From: Clostridia bacterium
Lineage (GTDB): Bacteria > Bacillota > Clostridia > Oscillospirales > Acutalibacteraceae
Assembly (NCBI GenBank): GCA_017554405.1
Contig: JAFZIK010000016.1
Location: 2,699-66,698, forward strand
DNA length: 64,000 nucleotides
Direction: 5' to 3'
Position numbers and translations under genes: made by a program. Shown piece after piece: positions 54,355 through 57,737 of the stretch. How positions within the stretch are numbered: position 1 is the first letter of the stretch; the number at the start of each line of letters is the position of its first letter. The notes under the pieces are model-generated. The model saw only the letters and a list, made by a program, of their open reading frames with translations, searched no databases and was not told the origin of the DNA.

Positions 54355-54501
54355 ATGCAACGTGGCTTCATAACTATGGCATACGGCGAAAAATACTGCA
54401 GACTTGCTGAACATCTTTATATGTCATACAAACTGTATTTAGGATGTTTAATAATACTTTGCCCGTATAATAAAATGGCAAGAATCCTTATACTATATTA
54501 G
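54355..54501 (+). pseudogene. 5' fragment of a paralog-B copy (truncated duplicate)
   Basis: 54355-54436 aligns with 56826-56907. The core 54367-54436 is 68/70 identical by hand alignment. After 54436 the similarity ends, and the frame stops after 48 codons (MQRGFITMAYGEKYCRLAEHLYMSYKL then unrelated residues). Confidence 0.8.
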
Positions 54502-54511
54502 TAGGTAATTT

Positions 54512-55699
54512 ATGAAAAAAAATGTTTTTGTTTTTAAAAATCATTGTTGCGGTTGTGGAATATGCGAAGCCATCTGTCCACATAATGCAATAATTATGCA
54601 AAACAACATACAAGGTTTTAAATATCCGAAGGTAAACAACAATAAATGTGTTAATTGTGGTCTGTGTGTTGAACATTGTCATTTTAATTCCTCGAACTCC
54701 TTTGATGTAACGGATAATTACCCTTATGTTTTTGCACTTAAACATAAAAGCATTGATGTGAGACTAAATTCAAGATCTGGCGGTGCATTTACCGCATTAA
54801 CCGATGTTGTTTTAAATAAAAAAGGGGCAATCTACGGTTGCGAATTGATTGATAATAGAACAGCTATACATACAAGAGCCGTAACACAACTTGAACGGAA
54901 TAATCAGCGAGAATCAAAATATATACAAAGTGATATCAGCGGTGTTATTAACAGTATTAAACAGGATTTGTTATCCGGAAAATACGTCCTGTTTTCCGGC
55001 ACTGCCTGCCAAGTGGCAGCAATAAAGTCTTATTTGAAGAATATAGACACAAATAAACTAATACTTGTTGATATAATTTGTCACGGCGTTGGAAGTCCAC
55101 GGTTTTGGAGTGATTATTTAGACTATTTAAGTCATAAAGCTAACTCAAATGTAATAGGAGCCGTTTTTAGGAATAAAAAGGATTTTGGTTGGAACTCTCA
55201 TATAGAAACGATATACTTTAATGATAAAAAATACGATTTAGATTTATTTAAAATAATGTATACCTCCCATTTAATAATTAGAAGTGATTGTTCAGATTGT
55301 CCTTACAAAAGAATTAATAGGGTTGGCGATATTACAATAGGTGATTGTTGGGGCATTAGCGATATATTACCGGAATTTTTTGATAACAAAGGAGTATCGC
55401 TTGTTATTGTAAACGACAAAAAAGGGCAAAATCTTTTTAATGAGATATCGTGTGCGGATTCTATTGCCATAAATAACAGTAGCAGTCTTTTGCAGCAATC
55501 CGCATTAAATGTAAATTGGAAAAAGCCCAATAAATATTCAAAGTTTTGGCGCTTTTATAAAAAGCACGGATTTGAACAATCGATTAAAAAATATGACGAA
55601 TATGCTAAATCAATAATGTTTTCTGAAGAACCATTGCCATTAATTAAAAGAGGTTTAAATAAATGCATAAAACTTTTAAAGAAAAAAACAAAAAAATAG
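54512..55699 (+). CDS. Coenzyme F420 hydrogenase/dehydrogenase beta-subunit-like Fe-S flavoprotein
   Basis: An N-terminal 2x[4Fe-4S] ferredoxin motif (CCGCGICEAICP, CVNCGLCVEHC), then FrhB/FdhB-like blocks (SRSGGAFTAL, KYIQSD, LFSGTACQVAAIK, DIICHGVGSP). Confidence 0.75.
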   Translation: MKKNVFVFKNHCCGCGICEAICPHNAIIMQNNIQGFKYPKVNNNKCVNCGLCVEHCHFNSSNSFDVTDNYPYVFALKHKSIDVRLNSRSGGAFTALTDVVLNKKGAIYGCELIDNRTAIHTRAVTQLERNNQRESKYIQSDISGVINSIKQDLLSGKYVLFSGTACQVAAIKSYLKNIDTNKLILVDIICHGVGSPRFWSDYLDYLSHKANSNVIGAVFRNKKDFGWNSHIETIYFNDKKYDLDLFKIMYTSHLIIRSDCSDCPYKRINRVGDITIGDCWGISDILPEFFDNKGVSLVIVNDKKGQNLFNEISCADSIAINNSSSLLQQSALNVNWKKPNKYSKFWRFYKKHGFEQSIKKYDEYAKSIMFSEEPLPLIKRGLNKCIKLLKKKTKK

Positions 55700-56802
55700 G
55701 AATATTAACATATCATTTCCCATATAATTATGGCGCTATGTTGCAAGCATATGCCCTCCAAAAGGCAATTAATCATATTAGTAAATGTGAAATAATTGAT
55801 TATGAACCAGACTATCACACAAAACAATATGTTCCTAGAATAAAGAATTATATTTCATTAAAAAGCGCCGCCAATCCAATTGCCGCTCTCAAATCTTTGA
55901 TTTTTGGTTTATATGGTTATTTTAAAGACAACAATCATATAAAAAAGCATAATTTTGAATCCTTTAAGAAACTTTTAAAAAAATCAAAAAAGCTAATAAC
56001 CATTACGGATCTTAAAAAGGAACTATGTCACTATGACATAGTCATTGTTGGTAGCGATCAAATATGGAAAAAATCTCAAAACTATAATTTTGAATATTTC
56101 CTTTCCTTTGAAGATTTGAACTTAAAAAAGTATTCTTACGCCGCAAGTGCAGGTTCTTGCTTTCCGGTTGAAGATTTATCTTTAATTATACCATTATTAA
56201 TTGATTTTGAGTGTGTGTCAGTGCGGGAAAAAGCGTTGGCAGATCAGTTGACGGAATTTGGCATTAATTGCCAGATAGATTTAGACCCTACCCTGTTATT
56301 AAAAAAAGAAGATTACATAAAAATTGAAAAAAAGAAAAAAGTAAAAAACAAATACATCTTTGTTTATTTTTGCCATGATGATAGGGCAATAGCCCCTCTA
56401 AAGCATTTATCAGAAACGTTAAATGCAGAAATAATATTTGGACCATATGTGAGTTTTAAAACAAAAATTGATTTTGAATACAAACTTTGGGATTATTTAA
56501 GCCCGCAGGAGTTTCTATACTGTATTCATCATGCGTGTCTTATTGTAACAAGTTCCTTTCATTGCACAGTTTTTTCTATACTATACAATAAGCCCTTTAT
56601 TGTCTTCGACGGCGTAGGTGCATTTGAGCGGATTAAGAATTTATTAGAGTTTACAGATTTAACAAGCCATATTTTCAAATCTGAAGATAGCATAGATTTT
56701 AGCTATGATTATGAAAATGCCATTAAAAGCATTGTATCCAGTGCAAAATCATCATATGATTATTTAAACCGCATAGTTAACTCTTCATGCCAAATAAATT
56801 AA
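55663..56802 (+). CDS. Polysaccharide pyruvyl transferase family protein (1)
   Basis: Motifs IGILTYHFPYNYGAMLQAYALQKAI, VGSDQIWK, DPTLLL and VTSSFHCTVFSILYNKPFIVF. Overlaps the upstream gene by 37 nt. Confidence 0.8.
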   Translation: MHKTFKEKNKKIGILTYHFPYNYGAMLQAYALQKAINHISKCEIIDYEPDYHTKQYVPRIKNYISLKSAANPIAALKSLIFGLYGYFKDNNHIKKHNFESFKKLLKKSKKLITITDLKKELCHYDIVIVGSDQIWKKSQNYNFEYFLSFEDLNLKKYSYAASAGSCFPVEDLSLIIPLLIDFECVSVREKALADQLTEFGINCQIDLDPTLLLKKEDYIKIEKKKKVKNKYIFVYFCHDDRAIAPLKHLSETLNAEIIFGPYVSFKTKIDFEYKLWDYLSPQEFLYCIHHACLIVTSSFHCTVFSILYNKPFIVFDGVGAFERIKNLLEFTDLTSHIFKSEDSIDFSYDYENAIKSIVSSAKSSYDYLNRIVNSSCQIN

Positions 56803-56825
56803 TAACAGTGGAGGTGCTACCGTAG

Positions 56826-57737
56826 ATGTCAAGAGGTTTCATAACTATGGCATACGGCGAAAAATACTGCAGACTTGCCGAACATCTTTATATGTCATAC
56901 AAATTGTTCGGCAACTGTGATTATCCGTTTTATTGTATAACTGACAGCAGGAGTGCTGACAGTCTCAGAAAAACTTTTGACGGAGTTATAGTTAAAGATA
57001 ATTTTGTGAAGTCGACCTCGGACAAACTGATGTTTTTTACCGATAATCCCTTTGATGAATCAGTTTTTATTGATTCGGATTGCAGTATTGTTAATGATGT
57101 AAACTACATTTTTGATTTATTCTCAGAAAACGGTTCACCTATAAGTGCGATTGCAGATATTAAGGATTTAAGGGAAAAGCAAAAGGGACGCCAGTTTGGA
57201 GTAAACGCAATAAAAGAATTATGCATCACCAAAGACTTTCCGAATTTTAATGGCGGAGTTTATTATTATAGAAAAACCGATTTAACCAATATATATGTTG
57301 ATTTTATGATAAATGATGTACTCCCCAATTATCACTATTACGGTTGCTTAAGCGATGACAAGAATATTGTGATATATGATGAACCAATAGTGATATTATG
57401 TATGCTGAAATATGGGTTTATACCTGTGCCGCCAAGTAAAAACATTATGTATTTGGTTCACAATAAAACAAGAGTTAAATGGAATATGAAAAATCATATT
57501 TCTACATACAAGTGGTATGAATGTATCGTTCACCCTACAATCATACATTGGAAAGTCGGTGGAACCGAGACTTTTAATTATGAAAAATATGACGCGAAAA
57601 TCAGGGGACTTTTTTACAAAAGCAGGAAACTTTCAATAATTAAAAATCAAATAATTGCTTTTGGGAAGTATTACGTTTATCCTAAACTTTTAAAAATCTC
57701 TCCTAAGTTTAGGAATATCATAATTAAAAATCGGTAA
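56826..57737 (+). CDS. Uncharacterised DxD protein, possible GT-A (GT8-like) transferase; paralog B
   Basis: RBS GGAGGTG. Paralog of the 53380 gene. DSD motif (VFIDSDCSIV) and NGGVYYYRK. Confidence 0.4.
   Translation: MSRGFITMAYGEKYCRLAEHLYMSYKLFGNCDYPFYCITDSRSADSLRKTFDGVIVKDNFVKSTSDKLMFFTDNPFDESVFIDSDCSIVNDVNYIFDLFSENGSPISAIADIKDLREKQKGRQFGVNAIKELCITKDFPNFNGGVYYYRKTDLTNIYVDFMINDVLPNYHYYGCLSDDKNIVIYDEPIVILCMLKYGFIPVPPSKNIMYLVHNKTRVKWNMKNHISTYKWYECIVHPTIIHWKVGGTETFNYEKYDAKIRGLFYKSRKLSIIKNQIIAFGKYYVYPKLLKISPKFRNIIIKNR

Follow-up and report, generated by a model that had tools for sequence, protein, structure and literature searches.

We analysed a 64,000-nt stretch of DNA, here called the window, from an uncultured member of the Clostridia (family Acutalibacteraceae; GenBank assembly GCA_017554405.1, contig JAFZIK010000016.1, positions 2,699 to 66,698 of the forward strand). 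The window carries an ABC-transporter-dependent glycan cluster with GT4 and GT2 glycosyltransferases, an ABC-2 permease and a TagH/Wzt-like ATPase. Two paralogous glycosyltransferase genes of this cluster, A and B, are separated by a two-gene cassette for an iron-sulfur (Fe-S) protein and a polysaccharide pyruvyl transferase. The cassette is bracketed by a direct repeat of 82 nt, of which the right copy is the 5′ end of B and the left copy, directly after A, appears to be the 5′ stub of the B-type gene originally resident there. The cassette probably entered the 5′ end of a resident B gene, leaving the stub behind and duplicating part of the gene start.

Genes of the locus

Both cassette proteins score far above the Pfam cut-offs of their families, the pyruvyl transferase with 106.2 bits for PF04230 (cut-off 25.3) and the Fe-S protein with 78.3 bits for PF04432 (cut-off 23.3). 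Their genes overlap by 37 nt (55663-55699). By family thresholds and adjacency, the two are predicted to be an Fe-S/pyruvyl-transferase pair. Orthologues of the pyruvyl transferase are just 52-64% identical to it. A second PF04230 gene, ~28% identical to the first and lacking an Fe-S partner, lies just ahead of the ABC transporter (58869-60020, + strand). Its start is TTG 58869 in the list of open reading frames (ORFs) and a later ATG (377 aa) according to gene callers.

Paralog A is ~36% identical to B, and its orthologues in the related contigs L003, L004, L006 and L097 are 78-83% identical to it. No Pfam family, GT8 included, was matched by A or B, and A was also without an NCBIfam match. 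An AlphaFold model of the B family has a GT-A fold with a predicted local distance difference test (pLDDT) score of 90.9. A Foldseek search of this model against the PDB gave glycogenin, LARGE1 and XXYLT1 as best matches (glycogenin-2 at E 5e-9), with TM-scores of only 0.4-0.5. A B-family profile found glycogenin-2 among the PDB sequences at E 8e-5, and the DSD motif is invariant in the B family. Modelling thus predicts A and B to be GT8-like GT-A glycosyltransferases, a membership that applies at the level of the fold only. The features of the locus are listed in Table 1.

Table 1. Features of the cassette and its surroundings (positions in the window)
Feature	Position	Strand	Basis or remark
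Paralog A, 323 aa, predicted GT8-like (GT-A fold) glycosyltransferase	53380..54351	+	ORF; resident, upstream of the stub
Left repeat copy, putative 5′ stub of the resident B-type gene	54355..54436	+	head 54355-54366 (ATGCAACGTGGC) linked to A; core 54367-54436, 68/70 to B
48-codon ORF, 27 B-type codons (MQRGFITMAYGEKYCRLAEHLYMSYKL) and 21 out-of-context codons	54355..54501	+	pseudogene remnant
75-nt junction segment between stub and Fe-S gene	54437..54511	+	left edge is the putative illegitimate junction
Fe-S protein, 395 aa, 2x[4Fe-4S] ferredoxin and FrhB_FdhB_C; first gene of the module	54512..55699	+	PF04432 7.5e-22, Fer4 families
Polysaccharide pyruvyl transferase 1, 379 aa; second gene of the module	55663..56802	+	PF04230 3.7e-30
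Block of 481 nt, 100% identical to L022	56419..56899	+	flanks ~92% left, ~77% right
Spacer with strong ribosome-binding site GGAGGTG and the first 12 nt of B (ATGTCAAGAGGT)	56803..56837	+	putative right end of the incoming DNA
Right repeat copy, 5′ end of functional paralog B	56826..56907	+	core 56838-56907
Paralog B, 303 aa, predicted GT8-like GT-A glycosyltransferase, DSD at residues 83-85	56826..57737	+	fold model, structure search

The two copies of the repeat

A repeat finder and a scan of the whole window gave a two-copy direct repeat with 75 of 82 positions identical (91%) and a start-to-start spacing of 2471 nt. In the glycan part of the window, this pair is the sole dispersed repeat of its type. 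Its identity is unevenly distributed. Nucleotides 13-82, the core, match at 68 of 70 positions in register and include perfect blocks, one of 41 nt and one of 24 nt; both mismatches are synonymous in the frame of B (GCT/GCC and CTG/TTG). Across the equivalent codons, paralogs A and B match at only 40 of 70 positions. On the right the similarity ends abruptly at 54436, since nt 83-120 are identical at only 9 of 38 positions. On the left, the first 12 nt (the head) match at only 7 positions, with mismatches at five of the nine that follow the ATG (ATGCAACGTGGC in the stub, ATGTCAAGAGGT in B). The preliminary description of this DNA had reported the 82-nt pair, its 68/70 core, the abrupt right edge and the position of the copies on either side of the two-gene unit, and all of these were reproduced, with an identity well above that of the A-B paralog background. 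It had overlooked the divergent first 12 nt, which suggest that the start region of B is derived from the cassette.

The contrast between head and core mismatches has a Fisher p of ~1e-4. Head codons are 2.85-fold more variable per site than core codons among five relatives, and P is ~0.001 once this is allowed for. The five mismatches in nine head positions, against two in 70 core positions, point to a second, left-hand breakpoint near nt 12/13. Head and core have separate histories, with P about 0.001. The two cores, which match each other at 68 of 70 positions, match those of relatives at only 55-62 of 70, and they have bases in common that are found in no relative (positions 15 and 63) or are missing from most. 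This suggests that the cores are copies of one another rather than two old alleles.

The left copy forms the start of a 48-codon ORF that stops 10 nt ahead of the ATG of the Fe-S gene and is annotated as a gene on 5 contigs. The stub keeps a GAGG 9 nt upstream of its ATG. Of the GT-A fold it would supply, according to the model, no more than strand 1 and helix 1. The remaining 21 codons are unrelated, and the ORF cannot give rise to an enzyme. At most, its translation may couple ribosomes into the Fe-S gene. In annotation, this ORF is better treated as a remnant than as a gene. No such stub was found in other loci by a six-frame motif scan, which included relatives with the module. In the 75 nt that separate the stub from the Fe-S gene, promoter and terminator signals were not above chance and no stable fold was found.

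The A-B junction in relatives

The backbone GT2b-A-B-GT4c is kept at 70-82% amino acid identity in L003, L004, L006 and L097. A directly adjoins B in L004/5, L006/7 and L097, and the cassette is absent from the junction. The ATG of B follows the stop codon of A by 3 nt in L097 and by 1 nt in L006; in the window, it is the ATG of the stub that stands 3 nt after the stop of A. The 3′ end of A together with the stub head can be aligned with the A-B junctions of L097 and L006. The nine head positions of the stub match the heads of L097, L006 and L003 at 6-7 and the head of the window's own B at 4. The stub thus sits where B begins in relatives, suggesting that it is the 5′ remnant of a resident B gene.

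The head of the functional B has a different association. Together with the GGAGGTG spacer, it is identical base for base in L022, where it again adjoins a pyruvyl-transferase gene. This suggests that the start region of B arrived with the cassette, while the stub head is resident. Collectively, these comparisons show a resident stub, a cassette-linked B head and two cores that are copies of each other.

Probable insertion of the cassette into the 5′ end of B

These observations would be accounted for if the ancestral locus had a resident B-type gene directly after paralog A, and if the incoming DNA consisted of the Fe-S gene, the pyruvyl-transferase gene, the ribosome-binding spacer and ~12 nt from the start of a foreign B-type gene. 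The right junction would have formed by homologous recombination, in register, between nt 12 of B and the first tens of nucleotides of the core, so that B would stay intact and acquire a new start region. The left junction would be illegitimate and would connect nt 82 of the resident B with a point 75 nt upstream of the Fe-S gene. In the coordinates of the gene, this junction would lie downstream of the one on the right, and nt 13-82 would thereby be duplicated. As to the exact molecular route, we infer either a template switch or one-ended invasion, as a variant of homology-facilitated illegitimate recombination (HFIR), or the single-crossover integration of a circular molecule.

We consider it probable that the cassette was inserted into the 5′ end of B in this way, leaving the resident stub and the duplicated nt 13-82. 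Entry of the cassette by recombination in the 5′ end of B had been proposed in the preliminary description, and this proposal is supported by the position of the stub at the start of the relatives' B, by the adjacency of A and B in three relatives and by the location of the pair elsewhere in others. Two marks of HFIR can be recognised. A homologous junction is present, since B reads in frame and equals the resident core from nt 13 onwards. A non-homologous junction is also present, as identity drops from 68/70 to 9/38 at 54436 and the 75-nt segment beyond matches nothing. The usual loss of recipient DNA is not seen; nt 13-82 are duplicated, which would need a template-switch, sister-molecule or circle variant of the process.

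Several points weigh against an insertion of this kind. Classical HFIR usually deletes, and does not duplicate, recipient DNA. No same-species allele with an intact resident B (MQRGF...) beside A and no same-species empty site was found, and the pre-insertion state is deduced from relatives whose proteins are 70-83% identical. The 75-nt segment had no similarity in blastn-short comparisons with all relatives, including the regions upstream of their Fe-S genes, so no source for it was found. The guanine-plus-cytosine (GC) content of the cassette, 0.31, does not set it apart from A (0.35) or B (0.32). In addition, the near-identity of the cores could stem from gene conversion at a later time, confined to the extent of the homology.

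The same final structure would result from two steps, in which the cassette and B were first placed after an intact resident gene B′ (A-B′-FeS-PvT-B, where PvT is the pyruvyl transferase) and B′ was then deleted from nt 83 to a point just upstream of the Fe-S gene. In that case, the stub would end on the right at the junction of a deletion rather than of an insertion. No target-duplicating insertion is required for this, and redundant paralogs are frequently lost. In 54437-54511 there is no trace of the 3′ end of a B-type gene: in local alignments with the 3′ ends of 8 B-type genes, p was 0.02-0.97, which is not significant after correction. No relative shows the order B-FeS-PvT-B, and two such steps would not by themselves account for cores that are 97% identical next to heads with differences at 5 of 9 positions. 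We therefore regard a two-step origin as unlikely.

Mobility of the module and recurrent breakpoints

The Fe-S/pyruvyl-transferase pair occurs at several positions in related loci. In the window it lies between A and B, as it does in L003, where a hexapeptide acyltransferase is present in addition. In L017-L020 it immediately precedes a B-type gene, and in L014 and L015 it stands ahead of the ABC transporter. L004, L006, L097 and L098 lack it. Wherever present, the two genes stand together and overlap by ~30-37 nt, as in five other locus types, L003 (8836-8872), L014 (10001-10037), L015 (10001-10031), L016 and L017 (584-620). This suggests that the Fe-S protein and the pyruvyl transferase are an obligate functional pair. 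We know of no role for the Fe-S partner in pyruvylation.

The insertion in L003 was compared with the uninterrupted junction of L097, a contig collinear with it. Positions 6962-10000 of L003, aligned with 8711-8713 of L097, are a clean 3,037-nt insert, with homology stopping at the stop codon of A and resuming at the ATG of B. The insert holds the hexapeptide acyltransferase, Fe-S and pyruvyl-transferase genes and is free of any repeat or stub. Between the window and L003, the cassette proteins are 58-61% identical and the flanks 72-82%. The lower identity of the cassette than of its flanks suggests that the insertions at the A-B junction were separate, and the two are probably independent insertions at one hot spot.

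A second breakpoint is apparent from L022, a diverged lineage (ENA ERZ27297857, k141_1248345, 1-1110, aligned with window 56105-57214). The right end of the block that is identical between L022 and the window falls at nt 74/75 of B, within the repeat core, which suggests a second recombination breakpoint inside the core. Together with the junctions of the window, this shows that the conserved 5′ segment of B has been used repeatedly as a crossover site. The B orthologue of L022 has a premature TAA in place of the relatives' GAA (after ...DLANP), and is either a pseudogene or affected by a sequencing error.

A transposon, an insertion sequence and an integron cassette were considered and rejected, as neither recombinase genes nor terminal inverted repeats were found. 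A family search detected no recombinase family among the genes of 49982-60911, and the records of the genes called on L001, which extend through 62230, list none either. A repeat search revealed no terminal inverted repeats at the ends of the cassette. Between the repeats there are only the Fe-S and pyruvyl-transferase genes, and the duplication consists of 70-82 nt of coding sequence.

Predicted excision of the cassette

The preliminary description had also held that deletion between the two copies would regenerate an intact B and that the cell could in this way gain or lose a glycan modification without a recombinase. The first part is right on paper: computed recombination between the copies removes 2471 bp and leaves an in-frame B of 303 aa that differs only by S2Q. 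The second part found no support, because no deletion allele was detected and because deletion would bring loss only, regain needing re-import of the cassette. Alleles lacking the cassette were sought by exact-protein look-ups of A, B, the pyruvyl-transferase variant P0056 and the predicted hybrid, and through the 90% cluster of B. Of 11 same-species contigs, from at least 7 samples, two end inside the repeat; none of the 9 that span the site has the deletion, nor does either of two NCBI metagenome-assembled genomes (MAGs). Assemblies reveal majority alleles only, and a rare subpopulation would escape such a search. The predicted hybrid protein was not in a collection of 15 billion proteins, and the stub head had 0 matches in JGI metagenomes. 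A search of GTDB genomes and JGI metagenomes with the B-family profile gave only one distant relative (55%) and remote homologues.

A working excision and re-integration switch would consist of RecA-dependent looping-out of the module as a circle, a subpopulation without pyruvylation, and re-entry of the circle at B-type 5′ cores. The geometry is close to that of the wzy repeats of Salmonella Typhimurium (PMC12074656), the deletion is in frame and leaves a functional-looking B, and the core serves as a crossover site in the L022 lineage. Moreover, the single-crossover integration of a circle predicts the order that is seen, resident head and core, cassette, then incoming head and core. Against such a switch stand the missing deletion allele and hybrid protein, the imperfection of the repeats, the lack of a stub in any other module-bearing relative and the insertion in L003 at the same junction without repeats. 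The repeat, whose longest perfect block measures 41 nt and whose copies lie 2.47 kb apart, would be a weak substrate for rare homologous deletion. A switch of this kind is quite improbable, and gain or loss of the modification through the repeat is unsupported. If excision did occur, the circle junction would read B head and core followed by TATTTAGGATG; in reads, ACCGTAGATGTCAAGAGGT followed within ~100 nt by TATTTAGGATGTTTAATAATAC would mark the circle, and GAGGAATTAAAATATGCAACGTGGC followed within ~100 nt by TTCGGCAACTGTGATTATCC the deletion.

A broader form of this idea is that the 70-nt core is a portable docking site, of which modules carry a copy, loop out through recombination between the two copies, and re-enter any genome with a B-type gene by single crossover. 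We give this still less credence than the switch itself. If true, it would mean recombinase-free, population-level switching and spread of glycan pyruvylation among gut Clostridia, comparable to the attL/attR system of Salmonella wzy but made of coding sequence.

The arrangement in independent assemblies

The same structure is present at 99.86-100% identity in independently built contigs from at least 7 samples and differing assemblers. L001, L002, L008-L011 and L023 carry A, stub, cassette and B in this order, and they include the NCBI MAG GCA_017550885.1 and MEGAHIT k141 contigs. Contigs assembled with k=141 cross the entire 82-nt repeat. The Logan contigs L012 and L013 end at window position 54396, which is 30 nt into the 41-nt perfect block; as 30 nt is k-1 for k=31, such a break in the de Bruijn graph is expected at a true repeat. 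Short-k assemblies thus break up at the repeat scar. Although the window comes from a MAG and L012 and L013 terminate within the repeat, it is barely conceivable that an assembler fused a strain with adjacent A and B to a cassette-B strain through common k-mers, since MEGAHIT k141, scaffolders and NCBI MAG pipelines all give one structure, 141-mers cover the whole repeat plus both flanks, joining through the core would not yield the unique 75-nt segment past the stub, and the ends of L012 and L013 match the break of a genuine repeat. The arrangement is not an assembly artefact.

Other features of the window

Composition was tried as a test of foreign origin and rejected as uninformative, because the entire variable region is low in GC: the 50-60 kb region is low overall compared with 0.49 in the backbone. 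Window positions 49900-60000 have 30-40% GC, compared with 49% over 1-49900, and are a mosaic, with 0.40 in GT4c, 0.32 in B, 0.31 in the cassette and 0.35 in A.

A sub-threshold match to the Rfam family RF03010, 'mcrA RNA', was obtained at 56807-56854 (+ strand), over the spacer and nt 1-29 of B. It scored 30.8 bits, below the gathering score of 57.6 (E 1.7e-5 in a 2.8-kb search). The match is restricted to the unpaired centre of the model (ACCGTAGA.GT.....GGT.TCATAACTA.GG) and recurs in L022 only, not in other relatives. In B025/PSA-type phages of Listeria (43 IMG/VR contigs), the genuine mcrA motif adjoins a gene for an HNH endonuclease. We rejected this candidate as probably due to chance, because coding sequence under constraint makes up half of the match.

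Elsewhere in the window, a lysine riboswitch aptamer was found at 38877-39047 on the minus strand (97.8 bits, gathering score 30). Positions 20989-21144 hold ~10-13 tandem units of 12 nt (CCGGGTTCRTCK), which probably code on one strand for a short, repetitive stretch of peptide. A diverged direct repeat of 74-85% identity (35839-36198 and 38358-38717, spacing 2519) corresponds to two paralogous genes on the minus strand.

Relation to known systems

HFIR is known from transformation in Acinetobacter, Pseudomonas stutzeri and Streptococcus pneumoniae. It has been proposed to explain the arrays of effector-immunity genes found in type VI secretion systems (T6SS) and the orphan modules of Rhs proteins (PMC5361080; PMC3240628). 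As in these T6SS and Rhs scars, a conserved segment would have been the homologous anchor, here the 5′ end of B and there the 5′ part of effector or rhs genes. In both cases, the other end is joined without homology, modules are added, remnants of displaced genes stay behind and no dedicated recombinase is involved. Unlike in HFIR, 70 nt of the target are duplicated here and the gene appears to have been regenerated with a new start. The remnant also differs, being a 5′ end here and a 3′ end in the T6SS and Rhs orphans.

The wzy locus of Salmonella Typhimurium DT8/DT30 has two perfect 113-bp intergenic repeats, attL and attR, that bound a reversible deletion of 2558 bp. Deletion alleles, spontaneous excision, the circle and reversion were all observed there, and no recombinase was identified (PMC12074656). 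In both loci, a glycan-determining block of ~2.5 kb lies between direct repeats of ~100 bp, and recombination between them removes the block precisely, as observed for wzy and predicted here. Long direct repeats bound the block in the window as well (82 nt at 91%, with a 70-nt core at 97% and a spacing of 2471), and single-copy deletion alleles were not seen among the assembled majority alleles. Unlike the wzy repeats, those in the window are coding sequence, are 97% identical over 70 nt and have no deletion allele found for them. If the repeat did mediate excision, reversible deletion of the wzy type would extend to the Firmicutes; nothing that we found shows that it does.

Gene remnants and mosaic junctions are known from loci for capsules, O-antigens and cell-wall polysaccharides, for example the pneumococcal cps and the Klebsiella K loci (compare PMC5850285 and PMC4616057). 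The locus in the window resembles them in its glycosyltransferase backbone with accessory pyruvyl or acetyl transferase genes swapped at gene boundaries, in its low-GC variable region and in breakpoints that lie in conserved gene ends. It differs in its host, an uncultured gut Clostridia member, in its ABC-transporter pathway (Wzm/Wzt- or TagGH-like) and in its anchor, the first 82 nt of a GT8-like family that has no Pfam assignment. The repeat today is a scar, a recombination scar of a kind known from polysaccharide loci.

Together, these results provide a base-resolved example of the shuffling of accessory modification genes in loci for cell-wall glycans of uncultured gut Clostridia. The homology anchor would have been a conserved gene start, with one junction left untidy and a stub remaining, and the A-B junction appears to be a recurrent insertion point. 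The Fe-S and pyruvyl-transferase genes move together as an obligate unit of two, which may hint at the role of the Fe-S partner.

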